Source of the DNA: a virus
Strand: one strand, 5' to 3'
Length of the DNA: 37,622 nt
Virus genome (UHGV): UHGV-0369712
Below the pieces are notes generated by a model. The model ran no database searches. It worked only from the letters and a program-made list of their open reading frames with translations, and was not told the origin of the DNA. Positions 6,108-36,021 of this stretch are shown here, in pieces. The position numbers and the translations under genes were made by a program. Numbering within the stretch: position 1 is the stretch's first letter; each line of letters starts with the position of its first letter.

Positions 6108-6497
6108 ATGATTGACGCTCATGACTTCACAAGATGGGTGCGCACACAGGACACCCGTCTGGCTCCCGTTCTTCAGGGATTATTTGATCTCTACATCCGT
6201 GGTCGTGACAACAGAGCACGCACCACAAAACCGGAGAATGCAGACACCCTTTATTTCACAGTAGACGACTGCTACCGCGTGGACTTCACACCACACGGGC
6301 TGGCGTTGCACTGCCTGACACCACACGGAGAATCACTGCTGGCGTATTACGACTCCCCGGCCTCCGTATTTGCGGCAATGCTGGCGCATCGCACTGCTGG
6401 CGGGTGTGCCTCGCTGAGTGAATACACCGCTGAATTTAACCGCCTTTCTGCCCTGTTCTCGCAGGAGTGGCAGCGCGTGACGGGATACCAGCCATGA
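6108..6497 (+). CDS. hypothetical protein upstream of the replicase
   Basis: 129-aa ORF; stop overlaps the A start (ATGA at 6494). Confidence 0.5.
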   Translation: MIDAHDFTRWVRTQDTRLAPVLQGLFDLYIRGRDNRARTTKPENADTLYFTVDDCYRVDFTPHGLALHCLTPHGESLLAYYDSPASVFAAMLAHRTAGGCASLSEYTAEFNRLSALFSQEWQRVTGYQP

Positions 6498-9457: not shown

Positions 9458-10579
9458 ATGGGCGACTTAGGTGGTATTCAGTCAGATTTAGCCCAACTAG
9501 TTAGACTGGTAATAACTGAACAGTATGATGACGTTCGGTTATATGTCGCTCGCTTGGTGCGTAAATATCGGGAAACTATGCCTGCTCTATCCGAGCAGCT
9601 TGATCTTTATCTACGAAATAAACCGCAAAAGCCTGCACAAAGCCTGCGTAAGGTTACCGCACCAAAACAAGCGCTGCCTCAAACCATGCCTGTGGACGAG
9701 GAGTCAAGGCTTACCTTGCTTAAAGCACCAAATGAAAAGATTGTGAGCAAACCTCTACTGTCCAGTCAGATAGAAGACTCACTGGATCAAATTATTCTTG
9801 AGCGGAAGCACATCGATCGCCTCAAGACTCTCGGCTTACAACCAACACGCTCTGCCATTTTTGTTGGCCCTCCGGGTGTAGGTAAAACACTTACGGCAAG
9901 CTGGTTAGCTCAGAAATTAGGGGTTCCTTTTTACGTTCTTGATTTAACGGCAGTAATGAGCAGCTATCTGGGCAAAAGCGGAAATAACCTTCGGGCAGCT
10001 TTAGATTTTGCGAAGAAAGGGCCGTGCGTTCTTCTGTTAGATGAAATTGATTCAATCGCCAAAAAGAGAAGTGATGATTCTGATGTTGGAGAATTAAAAA
10101 GACTTGTTACCGTGATACTCCAGGAGGTTGACGAATGGCCGTCTTCTAGTTTGCTACTTGCTGCAACTAACTTCGCTGAGTTGATTGATCCAGCACTATG
10201 GAGACGTTTTGATTTAGTGCTCAATTTTGAGAAGCCAGATAGCGAAAGTATTAAAGAAGCAATTAAACGCTTTTCAGGTCCCGACTACGCGATTTTTGCA
10301 CGTTGGATAGATCTACTGGCTATTATGTTCAAAAATGAATCTTTTAGTAATATTGAGCGTTCTATCAACAAATTCCGACGTTCGGTCGCTTTAGGTATTT
10401 CCTCAGATGAAGAGTTGATTGGGTCGTTCATTAAAGATGGTTTATCAGAATTAGACAGGAATGAACGTAAAGAAATTGCAGTTACTCTAAAAAGAAATTC
10501 TAAATTATCCCAGCATGCCATATCAGACTTAACCGGAGTCAGTAGGGATACAATTAGAAAATACAGTCAAAAAATGTAA
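9458..10579 (+). CDS. AAA+ ATPase (classical AAA clade), IetA-like candidate defence ATPase
   Basis: 373 aa; Walker A GPPGVGKT, Walker B VLLLDEID, sensor-1 ATN, arginine-finger region WRRFD; C-terminal HTH-like tail; AT-rich gene in the slot between A and the cos/Q region. Confidence 0.8.
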   Translation: MGDLGGIQSDLAQLVRLVITEQYDDVRLYVARLVRKYRETMPALSEQLDLYLRNKPQKPAQSLRKVTAPKQALPQTMPVDEESRLTLLKAPNEKIVSKPLLSSQIEDSLDQIILERKHIDRLKTLGLQPTRSAIFVGPPGVGKTLTASWLAQKLGVPFYVLDLTAVMSSYLGKSGNNLRAALDFAKKGPCVLLLDEIDSIAKKRSDDSDVGELKRLVTVILQEVDEWPSSSLLLAATNFAELIDPALWRRFDLVLNFEKPDSESIKEAIKRFSGPDYAIFARWIDLLAIMFKNESFSNIERSINKFRRSVALGISSDEELIGSFIKDGLSELDRNERKEIAVTLKRNSKLSQHAISDLTGVSRDTIRKYSQKM

Positions 10580-10602
10580 TACAGCATAGATAAGGAGTAT
10601 GT

Positions 10603-12828
10603 ATGGCGAAAACTAATTTTCTGATTGGACGCGGCGAATTATTAACCAGCGATATTCCTGGTCCTAAAAGAGTGCCCGGAAAAGCTGAGGTTTATTCTCT
10701 TTACGAATCGAAACAACGTTTATTGCCGCAAATTGCATCTACTATAGAAAATTTTGATGATTTACCCAGTCAGGCATGTCCTTATGATTATGCTGTGGCT
10801 AAGTTGACGTTGAATCCGAGCTATATTGCACGCTCTTTTTTTCCTGCAAAAATGCTTAAGTCTACCGGGTTAACGTCTATTGGCAGCAGGACGGTAAAAA
10901 TTACGCCTCAAAGCTGGAAGCGAAAAGTTACTGTGTCAGAAGTAACTACGACACAAATGTTTGTTGCTGGTAAAAGAGAATCCTTCAAAGAGTTACCTCA
11001 TTGGGTGTCAGGACTCAAAGAGTTTTCTGACGAAGCGATTGATTTTGCACGCATAGAACGGTTCGATGCCTATTTACCCGAAGAGCGTATTATTACCATT
11101 GGTGAGCAGGATTCTTCGTATTTTGAGGTTGGTGTTCATTTACTGCCAGATAATGAACAAGACTTGGTTCAGCAACAATTTGTTCAGTTTGCATCAAATT
11201 TGAACATCAAAGTACATACTTCATTAGCTTTTACCGCTGGTACATTATGGTTCGTGCCAATCCAGGCCGATAGAATTACTATTAGTAAGCTTGCGAAATT
11301 TACATTTGTACGAGTAATAAGACCGGTTCCAAGATTGCGTGGGATTAGACCAATACAAAGGAACTACGGTCCTTTAGCTCAGTGTAAATTGCCTGCTGAG
11401 GGCCCCGTATCTTCAGAAATAAAAGTTGCGATTCTTGATGGCGGTTTACCATCAGAGCACGCTATATCGCCATGGTTAAAATCCTATAGAGTTTTGGACG
11501 ATCATGCAGAGGATGATCCAGACGGTTTAGAGCATGGTTTAGCTGTGTCTTCAGCCTTTTTATTTGGACCAATAAGTAATAAATCGGAAGCGAAAAGACC
11601 ATACTCTTATATTGATAACTTAAGAGTTTTGGACAACAAGACCTGCCAAGAAGATCCGCTGGAACTATATCGAACTTTGGGCTTTATTGAAGAGGTATTG
11701 TTGTCTCGCCAGTATCAGTTTATCAATCTAAGTTTAGGTCCAGACCTACCAATTGAAGATACGGAAGTTCATGCATGGACTTCCGTTATTGATGATTTGT
11801 TAAGTGATGGTGAAACATTAATGACTGTTGCTGTTGGCAACAATGGAGAAATGGATCGCAAGTCTGGTAATGCAAGAATTCAAGTACCAGCCGATTGCGT
11901 TAATGCTCTTGCTGTTGGTGCTTGTGATACAGTTAATGATACGGAATGGAAACGAGCACCATATAGCGCCATTGGGCCAGGCAGAAGTCCTGGCGTGATG
12001 AAACCGGATTTAGTTGCGTTTGGTGGTGACACAGACGAGTACTTTCATGTCTTAGGTAAAGGTAAGAAGCCTGTAATCATACCCCAGCTAGGAACAAGCT
12101 TTGCCTCTCCTTACGCCTTACGAGCAGCTGTTGGTGTTCGGGCAATTTTAGGGAACGATTTGAGCCTACTAGCAATCAAAGCTTTGTTAATTCATGCGTC
12201 AAAACAGCTTGATCATCCTTGTATAGAAGTTGGCTGGGGAAAACTTCCTGAAGACTTGAACGACATTATAGTCAGCCCTGATGGTGTTGCCCGTATCGTC
12301 TACCAAGGTGAATTGAAACCAGGAAAATACTTACGCGCTCCTCTTCCAATACCTGAAGGTGGCTTGAAAGGTAGAATAAACTTAGCGGCAACTTTCTGTT
12401 ATGCAACAACCACTGATCCACAAGACCCAGCTTCCTATACAAAAGCTGGTTTGGAAGTGACATTCCGGCCAAATGATTCAAAAATCAAAGACGGAAAACA
12501 AAATGCTGAAACCAAGGGATTCTTTGAACTGGCCAAATATTCAACTGAAAGTGAGCGACGTTCTGACATGGGCAAATGGGAGACCGTCTTACATAATTCG
12601 AAGAACATGCTAGGTTCAACTCTAAAAAATCCTGTATTTGACATTCATTATAACGCTCGTGAGGCCGGTGCAAGCATAGCCAGCCATAAGGCAGAAAAAA
12701 TCAAGTATGCTCTTATAATTACCATTAAGGCATCAAAGCACCAAGACCTGTATAACGAAATTTTACGTACTTATAATCAGGTGCTCGTGCCAATTCAACC
12801 GCAAACATCAATTCCTATTCGTTCGTAA
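10603..12828 (+). CDS. subtilisin-like serine peptidase (S8 family), IetS-like
   Basis: 741 aa; catalytic triad motifs in order D (VAILDGG), H (LEHGLAVSS), S (GTSFASP), plus oxyanion AVGNNGE; 23 bp downstream of the ATPase with its own RBS. Confidence 0.8.
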   Translation: MAKTNFLIGRGELLTSDIPGPKRVPGKAEVYSLYESKQRLLPQIASTIENFDDLPSQACPYDYAVAKLTLNPSYIARSFFPAKMLKSTGLTSIGSRTVKITPQSWKRKVTVSEVTTTQMFVAGKRESFKELPHWVSGLKEFSDEAIDFARIERFDAYLPEERIITIGEQDSSYFEVGVHLLPDNEQDLVQQQFVQFASNLNIKVHTSLAFTAGTLWFVPIQADRITISKLAKFTFVRVIRPVPRLRGIRPIQRNYGPLAQCKLPAEGPVSSEIKVAILDGGLPSEHAISPWLKSYRVLDDHAEDDPDGLEHGLAVSSAFLFGPISNKSEAKRPYSYIDNLRVLDNKTCQEDPLELYRTLGFIEEVLLSRQYQFINLSLGPDLPIEDTEVHAWTSVIDDLLSDGETLMTVAVGNNGEMDRKSGNARIQVPADCVNALAVGACDTVNDTEWKRAPYSAIGPGRSPGVMKPDLVAFGGDTDEYFHVLGKGKKPVIIPQLGTSFASPYALRAAVGVRAILGNDLSLLAIKALLIHASKQLDHPCIEVGWGKLPEDLNDIIVSPDGVARIVYQGELKPGKYLRAPLPIPEGGLKGRINLAATFCYATTTDPQDPASYTKAGLEVTFRPNDSKIKDGKQNAETKGFFELAKYSTESERRSDMGKWETVLHNSKNMLGSTLKNPVFDIHYNAREAGASIASHKAEKIKYALIITIKASKHQDLYNEILRTYNQVLVPIQPQTSIPIRS

Positions 12829-13320: not shown

Positions 13321-14367
13321 TCAGGATGTGGGCTGGGTGTCTAACAGTGCGTAAGGGTTAAAGCGGATCACCTCTTCGCCAAGCCAGTCATTGATGTGCT
13401 TCATGGCCTCCATGACAGGCATCAGCTCGTTAATTGCGTAAACCCGCGCGGCCTTCTCCACATCACCAAACGCACTTTTTTCGCCCGGCATCGCCCCCAT
13501 CAGTTGCGGCGGAACGCGGTGCGCAGCCAGCACATCATCACGGGATGCCGCCTTAACATTCATGAACTCATCCTTTGCGGTGATCTGCTGGAACGGCAAA
13601 ATTTGCACCCCCTCTTTGCCCCCGTTGGGAGCATGGATGAGCACGTTTTTAAACGCACCACCACCACGCGCACCCTGTAACGTTTCTTTCAGGGAGCCCA
13701 TGCTTTCGCGGTTTACCTGCGCTGCACCAATGTAGATGATGCACCCGGCGTGGGAGCCGTTGTCGTAGTACAGTTTTCTGAACATGTCCGCCGAATGAGA
13801 AAGGCTGGCCGAGAGTAATGCGCCAAGATATTCCGGCATGCCGTAGATTTCCTGATTAATATCCGGATTCATCAGATGGCACACTTTACCAGGGCGAAAC
13901 TCAAACGCGTCCTTGCCATCCTGCACATACCACCATGATTCAAGATCGCTTCCGCGTCGCATGTATTTCGCCAGTGCGTGCCGTAATTTAAGCGGTTCGC
14001 CGAGCATATTGCTTCGAAGCTCAAGGAATGCGTTACCGAACACAAACCAGTCCAGCGCCAGCGCCGAGAAATCCTGCCGGGAAAGCAGCGGGTGCGGGAT
14101 GTAGCAACCGAGCAATACATTGCGCTTAAAGTAAAGCGCAGACTGATGCCAGGACGTTTGCCGGGCGGCTCTTGCCAGACCGTACCAGTCCACCGGGGTT
14201 TCGTACCACCGCCCGTTATCAGCACAGTACATATTGTCCAGCAGGTCATGCCCGGTCAGGCGGTAAGGACCATCAAATGTGAATGCACTGAGCGACGATT
14301 CTTTCCTGAGCGCATCAGCAAGCTCAATGCGTGTACTCATGCGCACTTTTTTATTTTTTCTGCTCAT
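13321..14367 (-). CDS. Q: portal protein (P2 gpQ-like)
   Basis: 348 aa, about the size of P2 Q (344 aa) and at the Q position; start overlaps the P stop (ATGA), giving a P-Q operon as in P2. Confidence 0.85.
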   Translation of the reverse strand: MSRKNKKVRMSTRIELADALRKESSLSAFTFDGPYRLTGHDLLDNMYCADNGRWYETPVDWYGLARAARQTSWHQSALYFKRNVLLGCYIPHPLLSRQDFSALALDWFVFGNAFLELRSNMLGEPLKLRHALAKYMRRGSDLESWWYVQDGKDAFEFRPGKVCHLMNPDINQEIYGMPEYLGALLSASLSHSADMFRKLYYDNGSHAGCIIYIGAAQVNRESMGSLKETLQGARGGGAFKNVLIHAPNGGKEGVQILPFQQITAKDEFMNVKAASRDDVLAAHRVPPQLMGAMPGEKSAFGDVEKAARVYAINELMPVMEAMKHINDWLGEEVIRFNPYALLDTQPTS

Positions 14368-24530: not shown

Positions 24531-26681
24531 ATGAGTACCACAACACGAAAATTTAAAACCGTTATCACCGATACGGGTGCAAAAAAATTAGCTCAGGCAG
24601 CCGCGCCAGATGGTAAGCCCGTCCGCCTGACTCATATGGCCGTGGGCGACGGTGGCGGCACGTTGCCCACACCAGACAGTAAGCAGACCCGTCTGGTGCA
24701 TGAGGTGTGGCGACACACTGTTAATCGCGTCATCCTGGACGCAACACATCAGAACCGCATTATTGCGGAGCTGGTTATTCCTCCTGAAACGGGCGGATTC
24801 TGGATCCGGGAAATTGGTGTGTTTGATGAGCACGGCGATTTAATCGCGGTGGGCAATACTGCCGAAAGTTACAAGCCAACTGTTGCCGAAGGGTCCGGAC
24901 GTGCACAAACATTTCGCACCATTCTGACCGTATCCAGCACAGCCACCGTAGCGCTTACCGTGGATAGCACCATGGTGATGGCCACAGTGGATTACGTGGA
25001 TGACAAACTGAAAGAGCATGAACAGTCACGACGTCACCCGGACGCCTCGCTGACCGCAAAAGGCTTTGTTCAACTCAGTAGCGCCACTAACAGCGTGTCT
25101 GAAACGCAGGCTGCAACGCCGAAAGCAGTAAAGGCAGCGTATGACCTTGCTAACGGTAAATATACTGCGCAGGATGCCAGCACGACGCGAAAAGGCCTTG
25201 TCCAGCTCAGTAGCGCCACCAACAGCACGTCTGAAACGCAGGCTGCAACGCCGAAAGCAGTAAAGGCCGCGTATGACCTTGCTAACGCAAAATATACCGC
25301 TCAGGACGCCACGACGGCACAAAAAGGGATAGTCCAGCTCAGTAGTGCCACCAACAGCACGTCTGAAACACTGGCCGCGACATCGAAAGCGGTTAAGGCG
25401 GTAATGGATGAAACGAACAAGAAAGCGCCCTTAAACAGTCCTGCGCTGACCGGAACGCCAACAACACCAACTGCGCGACAGGGAACGAATAATACCCAAA
25501 TCGCAAACACGGCTTTCGTTATGGCTGCGATTGCCGCCCTTGTAGATTCGTCACCTGATGCACTGAACACGCTGAACGAGCTGGCGGCGGCGTTGGGCAA
25601 CGACCCGAATTTTGCGACCACCATGACTAACGCGCTTGCGGGTAAGCAACCGAAAGATGCCACCCTGACGGCGCTGGCCGGGCTTGCTACTGCGGCAGAC
25701 AGGTTTCCGTATTTTACGGGGAATGATGTCGCCAGCCTGGCAACTCTGACAAAAGTCGGGCGGGATATTCTTGCGAAATCGACCGTTGCCGCCGTTATCG
25801 AATACCTCGGTTTACAGGAAACGGTAAACAGGGCTGGTAACGCCGTGCAAAAAAATGGCGATACCTTGTCCGGTGGGCTTACTTTTGAAAATGACTCAAT
25901 CCTTGCCTGGATTCGAAATACTGACTGGGCGAAGATTGGATTTAAAAATGATGCTGATGGTGACACTGATTCATACATGTGGTTTGAAACAGGCGACAAC
26001 GGCAATGAATATTTCAAATGGAGAAGCCGCCAGAGCACCACAACAAAAGACCTGATGACGCTGAAATGGGATGCACTAAATATTCTGGTAAATGCCGTCA
26101 TTAATGGCAGTCTTGGAGTTGGTACGACGAATGCGTTAGGTGGTAGCTCTATTGTTCTTGGTGATAATGACACCGGATTCAAACAGAATGGTGATGGTAT
26201 TCTGGATGTTTACGCTAATAGTCAGCGAGTATTCCGCTTTCAGAATGGAGTTGCTATTGCTTTTAAAAACATTCAGGCAGGTGATAGTAAAAAGTTCTCG
26301 CTATCCAGCTCCAACACCTCCACAAAGAATGCAACGTTTAATTTATGGGGTGCTTCAACCCGTCCAGTAGTTGCAGAGTTAGGCGATGAGGCAGGATGGC
26401 ATTTCTATAGCCAGCGAAATACAGATAACTCGGTAATATTTTCTGTTAACGGTCAGATACAGCCCAGCAACTGGGGGAATTTTGATTCACGCTATGTAAA
26501 AGATGTTCGCCTGGGTACGCGTGTTGTTCAATTGATGGCGCGTGGTGGTCGTTATGAAAAAGCCGGACACGCAATTACCGGATTAAGAATCATTGGTGAA
26601 GTAGATGGCGATGATGAAGCCATCTTCAGACCAATACAAAAATACATCAATGGCACATGGTATAACGTCGCACAGGTATAA
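24531..26681 (+). CDS. H: tail fibre protein (P2 gpH-like); C-terminal part lies inside the invertible segment
   Basis: 716 aa, very similar throughout to P2 H as I recall it (N-terminus KFKTVITDTGAKKLAQAAAP..., C-terminus RPIQKYINGTWYNVAQV); contains tandem 44-aa repeats and a gix-like site. Confidence 0.9.
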   Translation: MSTTTRKFKTVITDTGAKKLAQAAAPDGKPVRLTHMAVGDGGGTLPTPDSKQTRLVHEVWRHTVNRVILDATHQNRIIAELVIPPETGGFWIREIGVFDEHGDLIAVGNTAESYKPTVAEGSGRAQTFRTILTVSSTATVALTVDSTMVMATVDYVDDKLKEHEQSRRHPDASLTAKGFVQLSSATNSVSETQAATPKAVKAAYDLANGKYTAQDASTTRKGLVQLSSATNSTSETQAATPKAVKAAYDLANAKYTAQDATTAQKGIVQLSSATNSTSETLAATSKAVKAVMDETNKKAPLNSPALTGTPTTPTARQGTNNTQIANTAFVMAAIAALVDSSPDALNTLNELAAALGNDPNFATTMTNALAGKQPKDATLTALAGLATAADRFPYFTGNDVASLATLTKVGRDILAKSTVAAVIEYLGLQETVNRAGNAVQKNGDTLSGGLTFENDSILAWIRNTDWAKIGFKNDADGDTDSYMWFETGDNGNEYFKWRSRQSTTTKDLMTLKWDALNILVNAVINGSLGVGTTNALGGSSIVLGDNDTGFKQNGDGILDVYANSQRVFRFQNGVAIAFKNIQAGDSKKFSLSSSNTSTKNATFNLWGASTRPVVAELGDEAGWHFYSQRNTDNSVIFSVNGQIQPSNWGNFDSRYVKDVRLGTRVVQLMARGGRYEKAGHAITGLRIIGEVDGDDEAIFRPIQKYINGTWYNVAQV
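25056..25420 (+). repeat. about 2.75 tandem copies of a 132-bp (44-aa) in-frame repeat within H
   Basis: KG[FLI]VQLSSATNS[VT]SET[QL]AAT[PS]KAVKA... repeated with a 132-bp period (units near 25062, 25194, 25326). Confidence 0.8.
25794..25819. other. gix/hix-like recombination site 1 (left inverted repeat of the invertible tail-fibre segment), inside H
   Basis: TTATCGAATACCTCGGTTTACAGGAA; 22/26 match to the reverse complement of site 2; close to the Mu gix consensus TTATCCAAAACCTCGGTTTACAGGAA as I recall it. Confidence 0.7.
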
Positions 26682-26684
26682 ATT

Positions 26685-27212
26685 ATGCAGCATTTAAAAA
26701 ATATTAAGTCCGGAAATCCAAAAACAAAAGAACAATATCAGCTAACAAAGAATTTTGATGTTATCTGGTTATGGTCCGAAGACGGTAAAAACTGGTATGA
26801 GGAAGTAAATAACTTTCAGGACGACACCATAAAGATTGTATACGACGAAAATAATATTATTGTTGCCATAACCAAAGATGCCTCAACGCTTAATCCCGAA
26901 GGCTTTAGTGTCGTTGAGATTCCCGATATAACAGCCAATCGTCGTGCCGATGATTCAGGGAAGTGGATGTTTAAGGACGGAGCTGTGGTTAAGCGGATTT
27001 ATACAGCAGACGAACAGCAACAACAGGCCGAATCACAAAAGGTCGCGTTGCTTTCTGAAGCTGAAAGCGTTATTCAGCCACTGGAACGCGCTGTCAGGCT
27101 GAATATGGCGACGGATGAGGAACGCACACGACTGGAGTCATGGGAACGCTACAGCGTTCTGGTCAGCCGTGTGGATACAGCAAATCCCGAATGGCCACAA
27201 AAGCCTGAGTAA
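26685..27212 (+). CDS. G: tail fibre assembly chaperone (P2 gpG-like)
   Basis: 175 aa; [40 protein letters not shown] closely resembles P2 G. Confidence 0.9.
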
Positions 27213-27240
27213 AAATTAAGGCCCAATATCGGGCCTTCCC

Positions 27241-27774
27241 TCATTCTGGTTGTTCGGGAAACGTTACTGGCAGGCTGGAGGTGTCTGTAGATTCGACTTT
27301 CTGCGCATAGAGCATCCACTCGGTTAATTTTTGTTTATTCTCGTCGGAAATGATGCCCAGCCGTAGCTGTGAGTCCCATAGCTGGGTTTTATCCCTGACA
27401 AGTTGCAACAGGCTTTGCTTTTCATTTTCCGCTTGTTGCCTCTGCTCTTCCTCGGTATAAGTTCGCTTTATCACTACGCCATCTTTGAACAACCATTTCC
27501 CCGAAATATCAGCCCGGCGATTTGCTGTAATATCAGGTAATTCAACGACGCTTGCGCCTTCCGGATTAATTGCTGAAACATCCTTTTCAATACAAATAAT
27601 AACGCCGTTATGGTCATAGACCATTTTCAAAGTGTCTGGCTGGAAATTCTTTTGTTCCTCATACCAGTTTTTTCCATCATCTGAATAAAGCCATTTGATG
27701 TTAAATTGCTTTGTTAGCTGGTATTGCTCTTTTGTTTTAGGGTTGCCAGTAGTAATGTTTTTTAAGTGCATCAT
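27241..27774 (-). CDS. alternative tail fibre assembly chaperone (G')
   Basis: 177 aa; N-terminal half paralogous to G ([23 protein letters not shown]...), C-terminus divergent; inverted relative to G. Confidence 0.8.
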   Translation of the reverse strand: MMHLKNITTGNPKTKEQYQLTKQFNIKWLYSDDGKNWYEEQKNFQPDTLKMVYDHNGVIICIEKDVSAINPEGASVVELPDITANRRADISGKWLFKDGVVIKRTYTEEEQRQQAENEKQSLLQLVRDKTQLWDSQLRLGIISDENKQKLTEWMLYAQKVESTDTSSLPVTFPEQPE

Positions 27775-27776
27775 CG

Positions 27777-28490
27777 TTAAATACTCCCCGCGTTATACCA
27801 CGTCCCATTAATGCAATACTGAATTGGCCTTGCCTGAGTTGTATCAATTAATTCATCACGGTTTCCGTTAACTGAACCCGTAACGACATAACCTGACCTG
27901 TCAGACCAGCCGGGACCATTCCATGTCTGAACAGATGACAGACCGCCAAGGCGAATACCTGTAATAAACCTTGAGTTACATTCTGCCTGCGTGTATGCAC
28001 CAACATCTCCCGCAGAGGGTTTGCGGGTCGTGGTGTAAAACTCTGACCAGTCGGCTTCAAAACCATAACCATCACGGGCTGAACGATAAAAAATACCGCC
28101 ATTTTTATAATTAATCCGAAACTGAGCTGCAGGACAACTTCCTTCTCCCATATAAAAATGAATAATTAACGTTGATGCACCACTAATAGTTGCGTTATAG
28201 GCTCCGCTACTCCAGTTCCATCCAACTGCTTTATCATTCGCAACGGTGCTTCCTGTTTTCCCTAAGGCAAACGCACCAACATGACTTGCTTTTAATGTGA
28301 TATCGGAGGAACCATCAAAAGCCACATTGCTTATTTTCCTGGCAGTTTTTAATTTTGCAGCTGTAGAAGCATTGCCGGATAGTTCACCAGAAAGGCCACC
28401 GCTGAATGTTTGTCGATTAGTCCAGGTATTCGCTGTACTGAGTAACGGTATTTTCTCCCCGCTTGTGCCGAGTTCTCGTAAACCGAGGTT
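27777..28490 (-). CDS. promoterless alternative tail-fibre C-terminal cassette (Hv')
   Basis: Minus-strand frame open from 28490 with no canonical start; C-terminus RPIQYCINGTWYNAGSI parallels the H C-terminus; its 5' end carries gix-like site 2 in the same codon phase (L-G-L) as site 1 in H. Confidence 0.75.
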   Translation of the reverse strand, partial: NLGLRELGTSGEKIPLLSTANTWTNRQTFSGGLSGELSGNASTAAKLKTARKISNVAFDGSSDITLKASHVGAFALGKTGSTVANDKAVGWNWSSGAYNATISGASTLIIHFYMGEGSCPAAQFRINYKNGGIFYRSARDGYGFEADWSEFYTTTRKPSAGDVGAYTQAECNSRFITGIRLGGLSSVQTWNGPGWSDRSGYVVTGSVNGNRDELIDTTQARPIQYCINGTWYNAGSI

Positions 28491-28498
28491 TTAGATAA
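28473..28498. other. gix/hix-like recombination site 2 (right inverted repeat)
   Basis: TTCTCGTAAACCGAGGTTTTAGATAA; inverted relative to site 1; about 35-60 bp upstream of the invertase gene. Confidence 0.7.
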
Positions 28499-28534
28499 TG
28501 GCCGTTTCTGACCTGCATGGCATGATTTACGCTT

Positions 28535-29152
28535 TTGGACGGGAGATTCAGCGTGCTGATTGGCTATGTAAGGGTATCAACAAATGACCAGAATACAGAC
28601 CTGCAACGAAACGCTCTTGTTTGTGCAGGATGTGAACAAATATTTGAAGATAAATTAAGCGGGACAAAGACAGACCGACCGGGATTAAAACGCGCTTTAA
28701 AGCGCCTTCAAAAAGGTGACACGCTGGTTGTCTGGAAACTGGATCGCCTCGGGCGAAGCATGAAACATCTGATTTCTCTCGTCGGGGAACTACGGGAGCG
28801 AGGGATTAATTTTCGCAGTCTGACCGACAGCATAGATACATCTTCTCCAATGGGGCGTTTTTTCTTCCACGTGATGGGTGCCCTGGCTGAAATGGAACGT
28901 GAATTAATTGTTGAACGTACACTGGCCGGACTGGCGGCAGCGCGTGCACGGGGGCGCACAGGCGGACGTCGACCGAAGCTGACAAAAGAACAGCATGAGC
29001 AAATAGCAAGGCTGATCAAAAACGGGCACGACAGAAAACAACTGGCAATAATTTACGGCATTGGCATATCGACGATTTATCGTTATCACCCTGTAGGCGA
29101 TATACAGGCTGAAGAAACAACCAGGCAGACTCAGGAAAATGAAAACCGCTAA
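28535..29152 (+). CDS. serine DNA invertase, Gin/Cin/Pin/Hin family
   Basis: ...LIGYVRVSTNDQNTDLQRNALVCAGCEQIFEDKLSGT...GRRPKLT... is nearly identical in its N-terminal two-thirds to Mu Gin as I recall it (catalytic Ser in VRVST); C-terminal HTH; true start may be GTG 28556 (MLIGY...) rather than ATG 28535. Confidence 0.9.
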   Translation: MDGRFSVLIGYVRVSTNDQNTDLQRNALVCAGCEQIFEDKLSGTKTDRPGLKRALKRLQKGDTLVVWKLDRLGRSMKHLISLVGELRERGINFRSLTDSIDTSSPMGRFFFHVMGALAEMERELIVERTLAGLAAARARGRTGGRRPKLTKEQHEQIARLIKNGHDRKQLAIIYGIGISTIYRYHPVGDIQAEETTRQTQENENR

Positions 29153-29171
29153 TCTGACCATTAGCGGTTTT
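29144..29171. terminator. hairpin between the convergent invertase and U genes (possible bidirectional terminator)
   Basis: AACCGCTAA-(8 nt)-TTAGCGGTT 9-bp stem followed by a short T tract; overlaps the invertase stop codon. Confidence 0.4.
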
Positions 29172-29178
29172 GCGTTAA

Positions 29179-29673
29179 TCAAAACAGCCCTTTAACGGAG
29201 CTGGCCGCGCTGTTAAGGGATGATGTGACCTTATCTTTGAAGCCGGACAGCATATCACTGAACGATGAGGATTGCAGGCGCTCCCGCAAATCCTCATCAC
29301 AGCGTTCAAGGGTCAGTGAAAATTCTATCTTTTTCGCCTTACCGTAGCGATCAAACTCGGAACGGGTCGTATTCGTTCCGGTCAGGACATACATGCCGTA
29401 AATCTGCCCGACGCCATCAATCAGAGGCCAGGGGCGTCCTGTATACGCCTGCGTGGTCAGCAGCGACAGCGACACTTCGCCACCTGTAATTTCAGGATAA
29501 AGCACACCAGAAAGAACGATGCGATCATCACCTGCACCGATATACTGCCAGCTTGCTGAACGGTTAACGCGTTCATTTTTCACATGCCGCCAGCTTTTGT
29601 TTTGCTGTAACTGCTGATGCGGCAGCGTGCGCAGCTCAAAAACAAACATGCCGTAGATCATCATCATGGCCAT
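29179..29673 (-). CDS. U: tail protein U (P2 gpU-like)
   Basis: 164 aa; MFVFELRT...WRH..N.RV.R...WQY.G.G.D...L.GVL.PEITGG resembles P2 U. Confidence 0.85.
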   Translation of the reverse strand: MAMMMIYGMFVFELRTLPHQQLQQNKSWRHVKNERVNRSASWQYIGAGDDRIVLSGVLYPEITGGEVSLSLLTTQAYTGRPWPLIDGVGQIYGMYVLTGTNTTRSEFDRYGKAKKIEFSLTLERCDEDLRERLQSSSFSDMLSGFKDKVTSSLNSAASSVKGLF

Positions 29674-29679
29674 GACTCC

Positions 29680-32523
29680 TCAATCTTTATCGTAAAAACT
29701 GCCACGCCCGGCACGGGTGCGCCGTTCCATTTCTGCCCTGACCATTTCACCGACCAGTTTCGCCAGTTCGCGGGGATTCTGCGTAACAACGTTATGCAGA
29801 TGAACATGAATTTCACCACCAAATCCGGAGGCAACAGGCTCCCGGTTACGGGAAGTTACAGGAACTGATGCCACTGGAGATCGTATAGCCTCCGCCACCG
29901 GGCGGGAGCTGGCCGCAACAACAGGGACCAGCGCCGGAGGCAGCGGAGCCGGGACCACGGGTGTGATATTAATTGCGGGGGCAGGCTTACTGACCTGCGC
30001 AATCTTCCGCTCCTGCCACTCCCCACGAACAGCAAGTGCTCGGGGCAGGTTTTTAAAGACAATATCGCCGGGGCCAATGCGTTTTTTCGTCTCCTCAACC
30101 AGCTTACCTGTGTTATCAGCAATTTTGCTGAGTCTGCGCAGCGTACCGGTATTGCTGTCTGTGAGCGGTTTATTGTCTTTGGGGTTATCACCTCCGGTGC
30201 CATTGCCATTTTCCACAGGCTTCGGCGGATTGATTTTCGCCAGGTCCCCCTGAAGCAAGGCAACCTTGTCCTGAAGAATGGCCGCACGCTGTGCGTCTTC
30301 GATTTTCTTGCGCGCCCTTTCCGCTTCATCCGGAAGCACACCAAGCTTTTCAAGTATCCACGCCAGCGTATCCAGCAACATTTTTGCAGGTGTCAGAACA
30401 AGTTGTAACGCACCGCCAAGAACGTTACCGAATATCTCGCCAGCACTGGTACATTTATCCAGAGTTTCCTTGCTGGACTCCATCGGTGACAGCAGCGATT
30501 TAAACCAGTTAAACACCTGGCTGATCCCGCTTCCGATTGCGTCAAAAACAGGGCCAAACCGTTCAAAGGTTTCACGCAACGGGTTCAGCCTTTCCATAAT
30601 CCCGCTGAACACCCCGGCAAAAAATGCCCTGATGGGATCCCAGTATTTCCAGATAAGAACGGCAGCTCCGGCAAGCGCAGCCACGATAAGACCAACCGGA
30701 CTGAACAGCGCCCCGATAGCGCCTCCCAGCAAAGAAACGGAACCCGTCAGCATTCCCCACAGCGCAGGCAACACCCTGACGACATTCATTGACCGGGTAA
30801 GAATGTCAAAACCAAGACGCAGGGTGGCCAGCTTTCCGTAAAGCACCCCAATAACCAGCGACAACGAGCCAATCGTTGCAGTCATTGCCAGCAACGCACC
30901 GCCTGCTATCAGTAGCTGGCGTGTCAGTACCGGATGGGCCTGCGCCAGCGAGGTGATTTTTTCAAGCACCCGCGTGAGCCACTGCGTGACAGAACGCAGC
31001 GGACCGTCAACCAGATCACTGATGCGAATACGAAGACCTTCCCATGCGCTGTCGAGATTTTTCAGGTCCCCATCAAGATTATCGGCCATTACTTTTGCAA
31101 CGCGATCGGCCTCTCCCCTTGCCCCCTGCAATTCTCTGGTCAGTTTTTGCAGCTCTCCTGAACCAGCCGCCGCAACAAGCGTCTGCAAACCAACGAACGC
31201 CTCTTCTCCGGCGATGTCCTTGAAGAAGGAGACCTGGTCCACCTGTCCGTATTTTTGTGTCGCCTTATAGAGATCAAGCAGCACATCCTCCATCGGGCGC
31301 ATTTTGCCTCTGGCGTCAGCAACTGACACCCCCAGCTCTTTCAGTGCATCAGCCGCAGCTTTTGGCGGTGATGCAAGGCGGGACAGACTTGCGCGCATGG
31401 CCGTGCCAGCATCGCTTCCGCGAAGACCATTATTGGCAAGCATCCCGGCCATGGCCGCCGCTTCTTCAAGACTGATACCAAGTTTTGCGGCAACCGGACC
31501 GGTATACTTCATGGTTTCGCCCAGCGCGCGTAAATCAGTATTGGTCCGGGTAAATGCTGCTGTCAGCGTATCGCCCACCCGGTCCATTTGATCGGCTGTC
31601 AGGTTGAACTGTGTGAGGATATTGGAGCCTATATCCGCCGTCTCGCCGAGTTCGACGCCACCTGCCAGCGCCATATTAAGAACACCGGGCAATGCGGCCT
31701 GAATGGCCTGCGGAGTAAAACCAGCCATTGCCAGAAAGCTCTGCCCACTGGCGGCATCACTCGCAGTAAACTGTGTTTCAGAGCCAAGTTTTAACGCCTG
31801 CTCACGCAGCGCCTTAAACTGCGGGCTGTTTTTGTCGATTCGCGTCAGTGCCTGAACGCGGGACATCTCTTTGCCGAACCCGATCGCAGGCTGCAAAAAA
31901 CGCCCGGCAGCATAGCCGCCCGCCGCTGCCGCACCAATTGCCAGCGCACCACCTGTTTTCAGTTTTCCCGCGGTTTCCTGCGCGCGCGAATACCGCTCAC
32001 GCGCCCGCGTTACACGCGCAAGCGCCTGCCGTTCGCGTTCAAGCTGGTTGTTGTACTGTTCGGTGCGTCTGATGGCCTGCTGGATGGTGTTATCGCTGCC
32101 TGTCAGGGAAATGCCGTGGCGTTTCAGCTCTCCGCCAAGCTCCCGCATTTTCTGAATTTCCCGTGTGCGCGATTCATTCAGGCGTTCAAGCCGGGTGCTT
32201 AACTGCTGCATCAGCTTTTGTTGTTTTTCGCTGAGCACTGTACCCGTGCGTTGTAACTGATTAAGGGCGTTAAGCTGGCGTCGTGCTTTCACGATACCCG
32301 CATCCGCTTTACTGACAGCGTCGCGGGCGCGCTCAAATGATCGCGCCTGACGCTCGAGATTTTTGATCGCCCCCTGCGTTCGCTGGATGGAGTCACCAAA
32401 CTGCCCCATCAGGCGGCGGGCGTTTTCGGCAGGCCGGGTCAGCCTGTCAACGGCGCTGAAAGCGACCCGGATATCAAGAGTCTTCATTGTCTGCATTCCC
32501 GCTGCGAAGTGCCGCCCGCTCAC
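29680..32523 (-). CDS. T: tail tape measure protein (P2 gpT-like)
   Basis: 947 aa; long coiled-coil N-terminus, glycine-rich hydrophobic central segments; follows E/E'. Start may be an internal Met (M10 or M13) because the annotated start overlaps E'. Confidence 0.85.
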   Translation of the reverse strand: MSGRHFAAGMQTMKTLDIRVAFSAVDRLTRPAENARRLMGQFGDSIQRTQGAIKNLERQARSFERARDAVSKADAGIVKARRQLNALNQLQRTGTVLSEKQQKLMQQLSTRLERLNESRTREIQKMRELGGELKRHGISLTGSDNTIQQAIRRTEQYNNQLERERQALARVTRARERYSRAQETAGKLKTGGALAIGAAAAGGYAAGRFLQPAIGFGKEMSRVQALTRIDKNSPQFKALREQALKLGSETQFTASDAASGQSFLAMAGFTPQAIQAALPGVLNMALAGGVELGETADIGSNILTQFNLTADQMDRVGDTLTAAFTRTNTDLRALGETMKYTGPVAAKLGISLEEAAAMAGMLANNGLRGSDAGTAMRASLSRLASPPKAAADALKELGVSVADARGKMRPMEDVLLDLYKATQKYGQVDQVSFFKDIAGEEAFVGLQTLVAAAGSGELQKLTRELQGARGEADRVAKVMADNLDGDLKNLDSAWEGLRIRISDLVDGPLRSVTQWLTRVLEKITSLAQAHPVLTRQLLIAGGALLAMTATIGSLSLVIGVLYGKLATLRLGFDILTRSMNVVRVLPALWGMLTGSVSLLGGAIGALFSPVGLIVAALAGAAVLIWKYWDPIRAFFAGVFSGIMERLNPLRETFERFGPVFDAIGSGISQVFNWFKSLLSPMESSKETLDKCTSAGEIFGNVLGGALQLVLTPAKMLLDTLAWILEKLGVLPDEAERARKKIEDAQRAAILQDKVALLQGDLAKINPPKPVENGNGTGGDNPKDNKPLTDSNTGTLRRLSKIADNTGKLVEETKKRIGPGDIVFKNLPRALAVRGEWQERKIAQVSKPAPAINITPVVPAPLPPALVPVVAASSRPVAEAIRSPVASVPVTSRNREPVASGFGGEIHVHLHNVVTQNPRELAKLVGEMVRAEMERRTRAGRGSFYDKD

Positions 32524-33003
32524 GCCAGCTAACCACTTCGCCGGGCGTCATCATGAAGATTTCGGCGGGCGACCAGTTAAAAATGGCGGCAATATCCGCC
32601 ACAAAGTCTTCTATGTGCTCAAAGCACACAACCGTGATCAGGCTTCCGTCGCCTGTTCGTTCTTCCCGCCAGAGTCCGCACCGCTCAAAAAATTTACGGC
32701 AACCACACATAACTGAATAAAATCACGGGATGCCATTTTTTTGATCGTCACTTCATCCAGTCGCGGTGATGTCACGCGTGACAGCAGCGTAAACATGGAT
32801 TCCGCTTTCAGATTCAGCACATCAGACAGCGACAAATCTCGCAGAGATCCAGCCTGCTCAATAGCCCCGGTGATCTCCACATACGTGATTTTTTCGCCGC
32901 CTCGCTCAATTGGTTGGGTAAGTTTTACGCCACGCTCACTGGTTTCTTTCACAGTGTCAGCAACGACCGTGTTTTCGGTATCGATGTTTTTCGTCTCTTT
33001 CAT
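32474..33003 (-). CDS. E+E' tail assembly chaperone produced by programmed -1 ribosomal frameshift
   Basis: Slippery sequence AAATTTTTTG within E; the -1 frame continues as ...FFERCGLWREERTGDGS... to the stop at 32474, the conserved G/GT-type arrangement between tube and tape-measure genes. Confidence 0.7.
32638..33003 (-). CDS. E: tail assembly chaperone E (P2 gpE-like)
   Basis: 121 aa; ends shortly after the slippery heptamer T TTT TTG (plus-strand 32686-32692). Confidence 0.8.
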   Translation of the reverse strand: MKETKNIDTENTVVADTVKETSERGVKLTQPIERGGEKITYVEITGAIEQAGSLRDLSLSDVLNLKAESMFTLLSRVTSPRLDEVTIKKMASRDFIQLCVVAVNFLSGADSGGKNEQATEA

Positions 33004-33057
33004 CAGGAAACTCCTTTCAGTCAGAGGCGACGCACTGCGCCGCCTGCATATTACTTA

Positions 33058-33570
33058 TCAGCCAAGCCCGAGCGCGGAACGGATGCGATCGGGCACAATG
33101 TCCTTGCCGTCCTTCCGGTAAATGAAGTTCAGCAGGTCAATCTCCCACAACGGGCGATCGTTAACACTCAGCTTGTAGTAGGTGTTTTTAATGGCGTAAG
33201 TGTGTGATGTGGCTTCGCCCTGTTTGGCTTCCCCCATATCAATTTCCGTCACACGTCCGCGCATTTCGACTTCATACAGGTCGCTTTCTGCATCGGTGTA
33301 GTATTCACCCGCAAAACGCAGCAGCGTGCCGTCAATCGTGCCGCCATACTTAAGGAACAGCTCACGAACTGCGCCCCCCATGACAAAGCTCGCATCAAGC
33401 GCGGAGTCGTCCAGACCGAGATCAATACTTACCGCACCCATCATGCCACCACCCCGGTAGCTGTCGGTTTTGCGCGTCAGCTTAGGCAGAGTGACGGACG
33501 TCACCTTACCCACTTCGTTTTCACCATCCACAAACAGCGTAAAAAAGCGAAGATGTTTTGGTACAGCCAT
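33058..33570 (-). CDS. FII: tail tube protein (P2 gpFII-like)
   Basis: 170 aa; VTLPKLTRK...YRG.GM.G...DLGLDD and RFAG.Y resemble P2 FII. Confidence 0.9.
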   Translation of the reverse strand: MAVPKHLRFFTLFVDGENEVGKVTSVTLPKLTRKTDSYRGGGMMGAVSIDLGLDDSALDASFVMGGAVRELFLKYGGTIDGTLLRFAGEYYTDAESDLYEVEMRGRVTEIDMGEAKQGEATSHTYAIKNTYYKLSVNDRPLWEIDLLNFIYRKDGKDIVPDRIRSALGLG

Positions 33571-34754
33571 CAGGCACCTCCCAGCACCGCAAATGCGGGA
33601 CCAAAGAATTCATCAGTAAACGACTGGTAAAGCTCCATGTCTTCCAGCGGGGGAACAGGCGTATATTTGTAGCGAATACGCACGCGCCCCTGACGTAAAT
33701 TCGTGGTGCTGTTATCCACGATGTCATACCAGCACTCCGCGCCAATCAGTTTCCCGGCAGTAACCAGTGAATCCAGTTTTGCCCTGATGGCACTGATAAC
33801 ATCTTTCACGTTCGCAGGCGTCAGTGGACTGTCGATGGTTTCAAACTGCGCTTCCGCAATTGAATCAGCCAGCACCTGTGCGGTTCGGGTATACACCTCA
33901 AAGATGTAGGCGTTCGTTTCCGGTGTGCGGTTGCCCCAGAAGCGGAACCCGTTGCGACGAATAATGGTCGTGATTTCTTTGTTGTTGAGGCTGTTGGCAT
34001 CACTGTCTTCGGCCTGCAACGACCAGAACACATGCCTGGACATCCCCAGCACATTTTTAACCGGAACGTTGGACAGCGATTTGTGCCAGCCCTGCTCATG
34101 GTCAATGTACGCACGAAGGCCGCACGCATAGGCAGGCGCGGGGAACGTTTCGTTTTTGCCACTTTTCGGGTTGTAGGCGATGAAGTCCGGCCATAAGAGC
34201 ATCACCTCACGCTCGTTGAATTTCTGGCGGTAGGTAATCGCCTCAGCCATCGTGTTGCAGCCGTGACATGAGGCATACACAAACGCGCGCAGTTTACCCG
34301 CAATCACGCACAGGGATTTTGTTACCGCCTCCGTGTCCAGCTCCGGCGCGGCCAGAATACGCGGACGGTATCCGATGCTTTCATCCTGCTCTGCAACAAG
34401 CAGCGCATACATCCCCGTATAGCTGCCGTCATCCTCAGAACCACCGATAACCAGTTGATCCTGCGTCTTTCCGTCTTCTTCTTTGTGTTCAGCCACGCGA
34501 ACGACGATCACCTTTGTGCTCACCTGGTCTGCGATGGCCTTAAGCGCACGATAAAGCGTCCCCGTTGTTCCGCATTTTCCCAGCACGTCATTGACGCGGG
34601 TCAGCAGTGTGGGCTTGTTCAGCGGGAACAGCTCCGCATCCGCATCATCCGCCGTTGCCACGATACCGATAACACTGGAATCAACATCATTAATCGCTGT
34701 TACCAGGTCGGTACTTTCCGTAACACGGGCACCATGAAAACGAGTTTCACTCAT
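33570..34754 (-). CDS. FI: tail sheath protein (P2 gpFI-like)
   Basis: 394 aa; ATADDADAELFPLNKP, KLRAF.Y, WPDF, IRRNGFRFWGNRT, YTPVPPLE resemble P2 FI. Confidence 0.9.
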   Translation of the reverse strand: MSETRFHGARVTESTDLVTAINDVDSSVIGIVATADDADAELFPLNKPTLLTRVNDVLGKCGTTGTLYRALKAIADQVSTKVIVVRVAEHKEEDGKTQDQLVIGGSEDDGSYTGMYALLVAEQDESIGYRPRILAAPELDTEAVTKSLCVIAGKLRAFVYASCHGCNTMAEAITYRQKFNEREVMLLWPDFIAYNPKSGKNETFPAPAYACGLRAYIDHEQGWHKSLSNVPVKNVLGMSRHVFWSLQAEDSDANSLNNKEITTIIRRNGFRFWGNRTPETNAYIFEVYTRTAQVLADSIAEAQFETIDSPLTPANVKDVISAIRAKLDSLVTAGKLIGAECWYDIVDNSTTNLRQGRVRIRYKYTPVPPLEDMELYQSFTDEFFGPAFAVLGGA

Positions 34755-34902
34755 AGCTTCAGCCCCTTGTATCCGTTAAATGATTCAGCAACAATCATCA
34801 CCCACCACGCGCGTAATCTCACCCCTGCGCTATTCTCCCGCCACGGCGACAACAAAAAGCAGTAACCCACTCCGCACGCACATGCGACCATGCCGCACAG
34901 GG
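34755..34902. promoter_or_regulatory. divergent intergenic region that must hold promoters for the leftward FI operon and rightward D
   Basis: 148-bp non-coding gap between divergent FI and D starts; inferred from gene arrangement; no consensus element confidently read. Confidence 0.35.
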
Positions 34903-36021
34903 AGGGAACAGATGACCGACACCACCATGCAATTGCTCAGTCAGGGCACAGACCCCGTGAAAATGCCGGATTTTGATATTCTCGCGGAGGGTAAAACGCT
35001 GTCCGGCGTGGCAGAGCGCCTGATGAGCCTGTCGCTGACCGACAACCGGGGATTTGAGGCGGACCAGCTCACCATCACGCTGGATGATGCCGATGGCCAG
35101 TTGCAGCTACCGCCACGGGGCGCGCGTCTGACGGTTCTCATTGGCTGGAAAGGGGAACCGCTGACAGAAAAAGGCACTTACATTGTTGATGAAATCGCTC
35201 ACGAAGGACCGCCGGACAGGCTGACTGTTTCAGCCAGAAGCGCAGATTTTCGGGATGAATTTAACGTTAAACGTGAGGTGTCCTGGCATGATGTGACCGT
35301 TGAGCGTGTGGTATCCGCCATCGCTCATCGGTACGGTCTGAAACCACAAATCAGCGAAATGCTGATGGATATCGAAATCGACCACGCCGACCAGACCGAA
35401 GAAAGCGACATGTCCTTTCTTACGCGCATGGCGGAAATGCTGGGCGCAATCACCACGGTAAAAAGCGGTAATCTGTTATTCATTATGCCAGGCGGTGGCG
35501 TGAACGCACAGGGCCAGCCGTTGCCATCGTTCGCCATCACGCGCAGCAGTGGCGATCGCCATCAGTTCCGCATTGCTGACCGCGAAGCGTATACGGGGGT
35601 ACGCGCTTACTGGCTTGATCTTAATTACGGGAAAAAGAAAAAAGTCAGCGTGAAACGCCGCAAACCACCAAAACCCAAAAAGGAGAAAAGCAGCAGCCGT
35701 GAAGGTGATTATATGGAAGGTGCGGAAGGCAATGTGTTTGTGTTACGCAAGACTTATCAGAACGAGCAGGCAGCAAGACGCGCAGCGGCGGCAAAGTGGC
35801 AGCAGCTACAACGCGGAGCCGCATCATTCTCCATCACACTGGCACGTGGACGCGCAGAACTCTACCCCGAAATGCATGGCACGGTAACAGGATTTAAAAG
35901 CGAGATTGATAATCAGGACTGGATTATTGCAAAAGCCGAGCACACCATTGATAACAGTGGCTTTACCACACAGCTTGAGCTTGAGGCAAAAATCCCGGAA
36001 TGGATAGCGGAAACAGAGTGA
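34903..36021 (+). CDS. D: tail protein D (P2 gpD-like)
   Basis: 372 aa from MTDTTMQLLSQGTDP; LSLTDNRGFEADQL, SARSADFR, WHD resemble P2 D; lysine-rich central linker; GGGAGGG RBS before 34903. Confidence 0.85.
   Translation, partial: REQMTDTTMQLLSQGTDPVKMPDFDILAEGKTLSGVAERLMSLSLTDNRGFEADQLTITLDDADGQLQLPPRGARLTVLIGWKGEPLTEKGTYIVDEIAHEGPPDRLTVSARSADFRDEFNVKREVSWHDVTVERVVSAIAHRYGLKPQISEMLMDIEIDHADQTEESDMSFLTRMAEMLGAITTVKSGNLLFIMPGGGVNAQGQPLPSFAITRSSGDRHQFRIADREAYTGVRAYWLDLNYGKKKKVSVKRRKPPKPKKEKSSSREGDYMEGAEGNVFVLRKTYQNEQAARRAAAAKWQQLQRGAASFSITLARGRAELYPEMHGTVTGFKSEIDNQDWIIAKAEHTIDNSGFTTQLELEAKIPEWIAETE

Follow-up and report, generated by a model that had tools for sequence, protein, structure and literature searches.

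The tail-fibre module of a P88-like, P2-type Escherichia coli prophage very probably contains a functional site-specific inversion switch of the Gin/gix type, a system of the Din family (Gin, Cin, Pin and Hin). The module lies in a stretch of 37,622 nucleotides, which is referred to here as the window. The original prediction, an invertible tail-fibre switch resembling the Mu G segment, is borne out by two recombination sites, an in-frame fusion product, an intact enzyme, and the presence of both orientations in complete genomes. The features of the module are listed below, with coordinates given in the window.

24531-26681, plus strand: H, 716 aa; open reading frame with Pfam matches to Phage_tail_fib and, three times, to Phage_fiber_2
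24531-25806, plus strand: Hc, the constant part of H, common to both isoforms; 428-aa prefix shared by both products
25795-25820, plus strand: left gix-type site, 26 bp, TTATCGAATACC-TC-GGTTTACAGGAA, inside H; central TC at 25807-25808
25807-26681, plus strand: Hv, the variable C-terminal part of H, read in the window orientation; P2 H-type tip
26685-27212, plus strand: G, tail-fibre assembly chaperone paired with Hv; Pfam Caudo_TAP, E=2e-36
27218-27237, minus strand: terminator-like GC-rich hairpin with T-run, from a consensus scan; putative function
27241-27774, minus strand: G', alternative chaperone, silent in the window orientation; Pfam Caudo_TAP, E=1e-36
27777-28486, minus strand: Hv', alternative fibre C-terminus cassette, promoterless and start-less; Pfam gp37_C, tip of the Mu S' (G-minus) type
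28473-28498, minus strand: right gix-type site, 26 bp, inverted relative to the left site; reverse complement TTATCTAAAACC-TC-GGTTTACGAGAA
28553-29152, plus strand: Gin-like serine DNA invertase, 199 aa; GTG is the start codon, as it is for Mu gin; Pfam Resolvase E=1.5e-50, HTH_7 E=7.5e-13
28553-28732, plus strand: 5'-terminal part of the invertase gene, expected on the model of Mu gin to contain a Fis-dependent enhancer (sis); putative function
29142-29171, minus strand: terminator-like hairpin over the stop codon of the invertase gene, where this gene and gpU converge, from a consensus scan; putative function

In the mechanism we propose, dimers of the invertase would bind the two inverted 26-bp sites and, with Fis on an enhancer at the 5' end of the invertase gene as the probable activator, would cut at the central TC and rotate the 2,680-bp segment between the sites. 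This segment carries Hv-G on the plus strand and G'-Hv' on the minus strand, and a late transcript entering H from upstream would read one of the two gene pairs. In the present state, the products would be a 716-aa fibre, Hc-Hv, with a P2 H-type tip, and the chaperone G; in the flipped state, they would be a 661-aa fibre, Hc-Hv', with a Mu S'-type tip, and G'. Because inversion selects between two gene pairs, a population of lysogens would therefore release particles of two receptor specificities.

The sites form part of a 30-nt inverted repeat (25791-25820 and 28473-28502, 83% complementary). Relative to the Mu gix consensus, the left site has one mismatch, and it can also be aligned with Mu gixL; the right site has two mismatches, both in the outer half. 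When the entire window was scanned with this consensus, allowing up to three mismatches, only these two matches were found, against 0.00 expected from 100 shuffles. The same scan rules out a multi-inversion, shufflon-like system with extra sites. The two sites have an identical central dinucleotide, TC, as is characteristic of the Din family. The predicted pair of inverted 26-bp sites is thus confirmed, with the right site at the expected coordinates, but the left site had been placed one base too far to the left (25794-25819). The sites had also been proposed to lie in the same codon phase, within the residues L-G-L; they do, because the central TC provides bases 2 and 3 of a CTC codon in each.

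Inversion of 25807-28486 in silico joins the first 428 residues of H in frame to Hv', yielding a protein of 661 aa, and places the start of G' 2 nt past the stop codon of this fusion. Inversion thus swaps the C-terminus without loss of frame, and with it the cognate chaperone gene, exactly as had been anticipated. Genomes in the flipped state are annotated accordingly: PGAP calls the same 661-aa fibre gene, followed by G'. The full-length module was found in the window orientation in 134 complete E. coli genomes, at 100.0% identity in C7 and O111:H8 7-27 20A. The flipped construct was found at full length and in one piece in 146 complete E. coli genomes, at 100.0% identity in UTAK-5, 2015C-3108, C3, UTAK-13 and O111:H8 7-32 9A. 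That is, about 280 complete genomes are split roughly evenly between the two orientations. Strains NU14 and UTI89 show no differences over 12,622 bp once 25807-28486 is flipped, and this comparison limits the crossover to a 13-bp interval that is the shared core of the sites, ACCTCGGTTTAC, with a perfect core of 12 bp. Comparison between strains thus shows that the inversion happens in nature, with the crossover inside the site core.

Three tandem fibre repeats of 132 bp lie within Hc, at 25040-25399, and Hc is identical to the N-terminal part of P2 H at 311 of 375 residues. Hv matches P2 H residues 379-669 at 285 of 291 positions (98%), and its N-terminal part matches the Mu S structure 5yvq (E=1e-75). 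The chaperone G is identical to Mu U at 172 of 176 residues, and to P2 G at 163 of 175 (93%). On the opposite strand, G' shares 172 of 178 residues with Mu U'. The Hv' frame stays open between the right site and 27777; an in-frame TAA lies just upstream, inside the site, and the cassette has no start codon of its own. Its tip is identical to the Mu S'v tip at 151 of 165 residues (91.5%), and Hv' matches the S/S' fibre structure 8ju3 (E=8e-102). The hairpin at 27218-27237 occupies the middle of the segment, between the convergent chaperone genes and downstream of G'. A P2 H-type tip in one state and a Mu S'-type tip in the other point to a phase-variable host range.

The invertase has the two parts of a Din-family serine recombinase, namely a catalytic domain with the serine of the YVRVS motif and a C-terminal HTH domain, and RefSeq carries the same coding sequence. 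Residues 1-125, which include Ser9 in this motif, are identical to Mu Gin at 122 positions (97.6%), as against 32 of 60 for residues 126-185; the near-identity to Gin over the N-terminal two-thirds that had been proposed is therefore accurate. Structural matches are to Gin (4m6f and 3uj3, E about 1e-100) and to the DNA-binding domain of Hin (1hcr, E=1.8e-12). Given the divergence of the DNA-binding domain (32/60), the site preference of this enzyme may differ from that of Gin. The enhancer of Mu is located inside gin (Kahmann et al. 1985, cited in PMC3798978). Nucleotides 1-110 of the invertase gene are 100% identical to Mu gin, with three substitutions over nucleotides 1-180, so any enhancer that Mu has in this 5' part of gin is also kept here. 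A degenerate Fis-motif scan of the same region returned several G-N13-C candidates and no clean pair. By analogy with Mu, inversion would depend on Fis and this enhancer. In the interval from the right site to the GTG start codon, no sigma-70-like promoter passed a consensus scan, and this upstream region has 4 promoter-like matches, compared with 6.8 in shuffled sequence.

It is improbable, in our assessment, that the switch works but is flipped in vivo by another Din invertase of the host, from e14, Qin, Rac or a Mu-like prophage, with the adjacent gene dispensable or silent. Such enzymes do act across elements, in that PinQ of the Qin prophage inverts the P segment of e14 (PMC12529663), and genomes with the element studied here contain a median of two, and up to 14-15, places resembling the query module; the outcome of the promoter scan also fits a silent gene. 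However, the adjacent gene encodes a full-length enzyme that has an HTH domain and whose catalytic domain shares 97.6% identity with that of Gin. All related phages and prophages that were examined also keep this gene beside the segment, as would be expected if selection were acting on an enzyme encoded in cis. The adjacent invertase is therefore the likely acting enzyme.

Less probable still is that this lysogen carries a frozen relic, in which a Mu-like G-segment layout was inherited, no inversion takes place, and only Hc-Hv and G are made, as in P2. The window displays a single orientation, and frozen states exist in the family, since P2 lacks a second cassette and has just one gix-like site, in H. 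Nevertheless, copies of the module that are 100% identical to the window occur in both orientations, the inversion is the sole difference between NU14 and UTI89, and both sites, the silent open reading frames and the invertase are all intact. We give the least credence, close to none, to the notion that the polymorphism in orientation between genomes reflects assembly error, or RecA recombination between the inverted repeats, rather than site-specific recombination. While assemblers can be misled by inverted repeats, and homologous recombination can occur between them, the perfect core of the present repeats is only 12 bp within about 30 bp; RecA recombination would thus be inefficient, and modern reads would leave no ambiguity in assembly. 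Neither cause is easily reconciled with about 280 independent complete genomes that are divided roughly evenly between the states, or with a breakpoint in the site core, which is where serine invertases cut. Site-specific inversion by a Gin/gix-type system thus remains our reading of the module.

The layout is that of the Mu G segment and Gin, found also in D108: the constant part of the fibre, a site, Sv-U, U'-S'v, a second site and the invertase. Identity to Mu DNA reaches 90-91% in three blocks (25788-26108, 26646-28275 and 28478-28941), and the two chaperones, G and G', match U and U' at 97-98% of residues. The constant part, by contrast, is of the P2 H type and not of the Mu S type (50 of 136 residues identical locally), and the middle of Hv likewise resembles P2 H rather than Mu Sv. 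The Hv' cassette is shorter than its Mu counterpart (236 versus 322 codons) and has a different N-terminal part, and the invertase differs in its diverged C-terminal DNA-binding domain (32/60) and a longer acidic tail. The segment measures 2.68 kb here and about 3.06 kb in Mu, where the G-segment boundaries are at locus positions 621 and 3680. The C segment of P1/P7 (Cin) and p15B (Min) carry homologous S'v and U' cassettes and use a recombinase of the same family. Identity between the Hv' tip and the cassettes of P1 and P7 is 90-92%, but P1/P7 and p15B differ in phage backbone and in the constant part of the fibre, and their genes are ordered along the opposite strand.

The window contains a P2-type gene set, with Pfam matches to Phage_GPA, Phage_portal, Baseplate_J, Tail_P2_I, Phage_P2_GpU, Phage_GPD and integrase domains, and the neighboring baseplate genes J and I are of the P2 type. 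P2 itself is 91.6% identical at the DNA level over 25190-27205, through Hv-G. In its H gene, the homologous position is occupied by a gix-like site, TTATCGAATATCTCGGTTTACAGGAA, that differs by one base from the left site of the window. P2 lacks the G'-Hv' cassette and the invertase, with a terminator and fun(Z) following G, and its fibre is thus fixed. With this site in P2 H and the 91.6% identity of H/G, the P2-type fibre gene is already half a switch. The proposal that the switch was grafted onto a P2-type H/G module thus needs to be qualified as regards the graft, given that P2 H already has the site; either this lineage added G'-Hv' and the invertase, or P2 lost them.

On the basis of this gene set and of sequence identity over the module, the element can be placed in the P88/Xuanwuvirus group of the Peduoviridae. 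The whole 4.6-kb module is 96.4% identical to that of Xuanwuvirus P88_4B11 and 95.3% identical to that of Citrobacter phage phiSM, with the same gene order. These P88-like phages, a group that includes Escherichia phage P88, are annotated with a tail fiber, two assembly proteins, a tail fiber and a DNA invertase, and show no substantive difference in architecture; the Hv' cassette is 86% identical at the protein level. Inversion is not mentioned in the published P88 host-range paper, and the phiSM paper lists the invertase only as predicted. The same kind of switch is found in the P2-like prophages of EPEC E2348/69, whose invertible fibre loci were demonstrated to flip in experiments on clonal cultures (PMC4272514), and in the e14 P segment with Pin. 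The sites of these loci are of the pix type, AAACCTTGGTTTGGGAGAA, their cassettes are different and measure 1.6-2.0 kb, and in one locus three sites make up a multi-inversion system, whereas the module described here has two gix-type sites with a TC core. Because the sites differ, the EPEC loci are a precedent for the kind of switch and not for this element.

The module is a near copy of the textbook Mu G-segment/Gin system, which is already known, and it adds nothing new on mechanism; as a near copy found in hundreds of sequenced E. coli genomes, the switch is an ordinary one. There is a slim chance that it serves the host, in place of the phage or in addition to it, through a fibre isoform or chaperone expressed from the prophage that blocks adsorption of unrelated phages, or that its invertase cross-flips segments of other prophages and so links phase-variable loci into a network. 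StfE2, the product of the PinQ-driven e14 inversion, reportedly blocks adsorption of unrelated phages. For annotation, the lesson is that the silent cassette is entered in RefSeq as a hypothetical protein or a pseudogene, and that flips will show up in comparisons of strains as spurious differences in the tail-fibre gene. For the biology of the phage, the two tips predict that virions of two kinds should come from this lysogen, with P2-like receptor specificity in one and Mu G(-)-like specificity in the other. Two kinds of virion would matter for host-range tests of P88-like phages, and for reading prophage transfer among E. coli, Citrobacter and Shigella.

The fibre module at 24531-29152 consists of five coding units, listed here together with two sites resembling the gix sites of phage Mu and two hairpins.

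24531-26681, plus strand: tail-fibre gene H (716 aa), with a Pfam Phage_tail_fib N-terminal domain, three Phage_fiber_2 repeats and a Gp34_trimer-like stretch
25795-25820: left site, TTATCGAATACC-TC-GGTTTACAGGAA, read in register
26685-27212, plus strand: chaperone gene G (Caudo_TAP)
27218-27237: terminator-like hairpin between G and G'
27241-27774, minus strand: alternative chaperone gene G' (Caudo_TAP)
ending at 27777, minus strand: Hv' C-terminal fibre cassette (gp37_C)
28473-28498, reverse complement: right site, TTATCTAAAACC-TC-GGTTTACGAGAA, read in register
28553-29152, plus strand: serine recombinase, the invertase (Resolvase and HTH_7 domains)
29142-29171: terminator-like hairpin at the invertase stop codon

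The Hv' cassette is an open minus-strand frame that runs from the right site to its stop at 27777 and lacks its own start codon. Within the constant part of H (Hc) lie three 132-bp tandem repeats at 25040-25399 (75-87% identical), which correspond to the three Phage_fiber_2 repeats and could provide for length variation of the fibre shaft.

The original prediction placed two gix-like sites in inverted orientation around this segment, and they are recovered both by a repeat finder, as the inverted repeat 25791-25820 / 28473-28502, and by a search of the whole window for the Mu gix consensus. With as many as 3 mismatches allowed, these two sites are the only matches; shuffled sequence gave 0.00 matches. 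The right site lies exactly where it had been placed, but the left one was off by one base, reading in register giving 25795-25820. At both sites the central TC forms bases 2 and 3 of the CTC codon in Leu-Gly-Leu; that is, the codon phase is the same, as had been claimed. The right site also includes an in-frame TAA (28491-28493, minus strand) directly upstream of the Leu-Gly-Leu codons, where Mu gixR has CAA, so that read-through coming from the invertase cannot enter the silent cassette.

In silico inversion of 25807-28486 produces a 661-aa protein, of which residues 1-428 are common with H and are followed by ...LGLRELGTSGEK... and then Hv'. In this flipped state, G' starts 2 nt past the stop of the fibre gene. 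Thus, the constant part of H is fused in frame to the alternative C-terminus with G' brought behind it, as anticipated.

The native 4,622-bp module and its in silico flipped version were then searched for in 5,426 complete E. coli genomes. A full-length native form is present in 134 of these, and is 100.0% identical in C7 and O111:H8 7-27 20A. The flipped form, full-length and unbroken, is present in 146, and is 100.0% identical in UTAK-5, 2015C-3108, C3, UTAK-13 and O111:H8 7-32 9A. In flipped genomes, the NCBI pipeline calls a fibre gene of 1,986 nt (661 aa plus stop) and, after it, G', matching the prediction. The segment, therefore, does invert in nature, and the notion of a frozen relic, whose orientation would be fixed, is contradicted by this coexistence of both orientations. 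It is contradicted also by strains NU14 (native) and UTI89 (flipped), in which the prophage occupies one and the same chromosomal position: once the NU14 segment is flipped, their 12,622-bp regions are identical at all bases.

The same data contradict an origin of the two forms in RecA-dependent recombination or in assembly error, given the numbers of genomes in either state and the position of the exchange. When the assumed breakpoint is moved along, the exchange between NU14 and UTI89 can be placed only inside an interval of 13 bp, formed by the core ACCTCGGTTTAC that the sites share around TC. A perfect core of 12 bp is not long enough to support efficient homologous recombination or to confuse assembly; the strain-to-strain difference is therefore the footprint of a site-specific inversion.

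The adjacent enzyme is intact. Its gene has the same GTG start codon as Mu gin, and the protein is identical to Gin at 122 of 125 residues of the catalytic domain, with the YVRVS active-site motif among them, which bears out the near-identity proposed for its N-terminal two-thirds. It matches Gin crystal structures (E about 1e-100) and the Hin DNA-binding domain (E=1.8e-12). Residues 126-185 are identical to Gin at only 32 of 60 positions, and the C-terminal end is a longer acidic tail than that of Gin, …VGDIQAEETTRQTQENENR. The gene is thus a mosaic (28930-29152), its 91% DNA identity to gin stopping near 28941; its HTH is probably closer to that of Hin than to that of Gin. Nucleotides 1-110 of the gene are identical to gin, and there are 3 substitutions in nucleotides 1-180. 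Since Mu has its Fis-dependent enhancer within the invertase gene (Kahmann et al. 1985, as listed in PMC3798978), the Mu-type enhancer sequence is very probably conserved here. Scanning with a motif did not define the Fis sites, and a separate consensus scan yielded no sigma-70-like promoter for the invertase.

Taken together, these data make a Gin-type inversion switch by far the most likely mechanism, and in its recombinase, its pair of inverted sites and its occurrence in both orientations the module matches a Din-family inversion system. Invertase dimers bound at the two sites would synapse, probably with a Fis-bound enhancer, and make their cuts at the central TC, so that the 2.68-kb segment is rotated. 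We infer that the acting enzyme is the adjacent invertase; the rival reading is flipping in trans by another Din invertase, for which the action of PinQ on the e14 segment is a precedent (PMC12529663). With the Gin-type switch, the late transcript entering H would encode either Hc-Hv and G or Hc-Hv' and G'. As two gene pairs are readable, both fibre types, i.e., P2-type and Mu G(-)-type populations, would be expected in induced lysates, probably with an effect on host range. For the Hv (P2-type) tip the predicted hosts are E. coli C and K-12, and for the Hv' (Mu G(-)-type) tip Citrobacter freundii, Shigella sonnei and Enterobacter cloacae.

DNA identity to Mu is 90-91% in three blocks: 25788-26108, which begins at the left site; 26646-28275, which takes in the Hv end, both chaperone genes and the Hv' tip; and 28478-28941, which covers the right site and runs about 390 nt into the invertase gene. 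G is identical to Mu U at 172/176 residues, G' to U' at 172/178, and the Hv' tip to S'v at 151/165; the same tip hits the solved structure of the Mu S/S' fibre, 8ju3 (E=8e-102). Identity to P2 DNA is 91.6% over 25190-27205, ending where G ends (Hc versus the N-part of P2 H, 311/375; Hv versus its last 291 residues, 285/291; G versus P2 G, 163/175). The description of a switch grafted onto a P2-type module is fair for this mosaic, but the P2 fibre gene already holds the junction site: a solo gix-like site, TTATCGAATATCTCGGTTTACAGGAA (NC_001895, locus L003, 2405-2430), at the homologous position and differing by one base from the left site of the window. What follows G in P2 is only a terminator and fun(Z), with neither a second cassette nor an invertase. 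P2 thus resembles a fixed form of this design with a single cassette, and its solo site may be a relic or a hotspot for fibre-module exchange.

Elsewhere in the prophage, two plus-strand genes at 9458-12828, flanked by the replication gene gpA (6467-9277) on one side and the portal gene (13321-14367) on the other, match models of IetA (AAA ATPase, E=1e-77) and IetS (subtilase, E=1e-51). IetAS is an anti-phage and anti-plasmid defence system; the prophage therefore carries defence cargo in a P2-type variable region. The tail-gene region spans 29179-36021. Its minus-strand genes, namely U (29179-29673), the tape measure gene (29680-32523), E, FII and FI (to 34754), are read towards H/G and the invertase; gpD (34780-36021) is on the plus strand. 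The P2 F operon is transcribed in the same direction as H/G, so the U-to-FI block would be inverted relative to P2 in the lineage of the window.

Close relatives of the module are found in Xuanwuvirus P88_4B11 (96.4% identical) and Citrobacter phage phiSM (95.3%), whose annotations each list a pair of fibre genes, a pair of assembly genes and a DNA invertase. Inversion goes undiscussed in the P88 host-range paper, and the phiSM paper lists a predicted invertase with nothing further on it. Invertible fibre loci of P2-like prophages in EPEC E2348/69 flip within clonal cultures, as seen by sequencing and PCR; unlike the window, these have pix-type sites and other cassettes (PMC4272514). Pipelines mislabel the silent cassette in the comparison records (L004, 7247-7957; L006, 7247-7744; L005 and L007, 7082-7918; L002, 6247-6585), as 'tail fiber protein, incomplete; missing N-terminus' (pseudogene) or 'hypothetical protein', and in the P88_4B11 record as a truncated 113-aa tail fiber protein; which cassette receives which label varies with the orientation in the genome.

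Both the observation and the interpretation in the original prediction are correct. Novelty is low, because this is a textbook system, with working parts nearly identical to Mu G/Gin, that is frequent in E. coli and already listed in databases of phages and genomes. A mild interest is left in the solo gix-like site of P2 H, the mosaic invertase and the mislabelled silent cassette.
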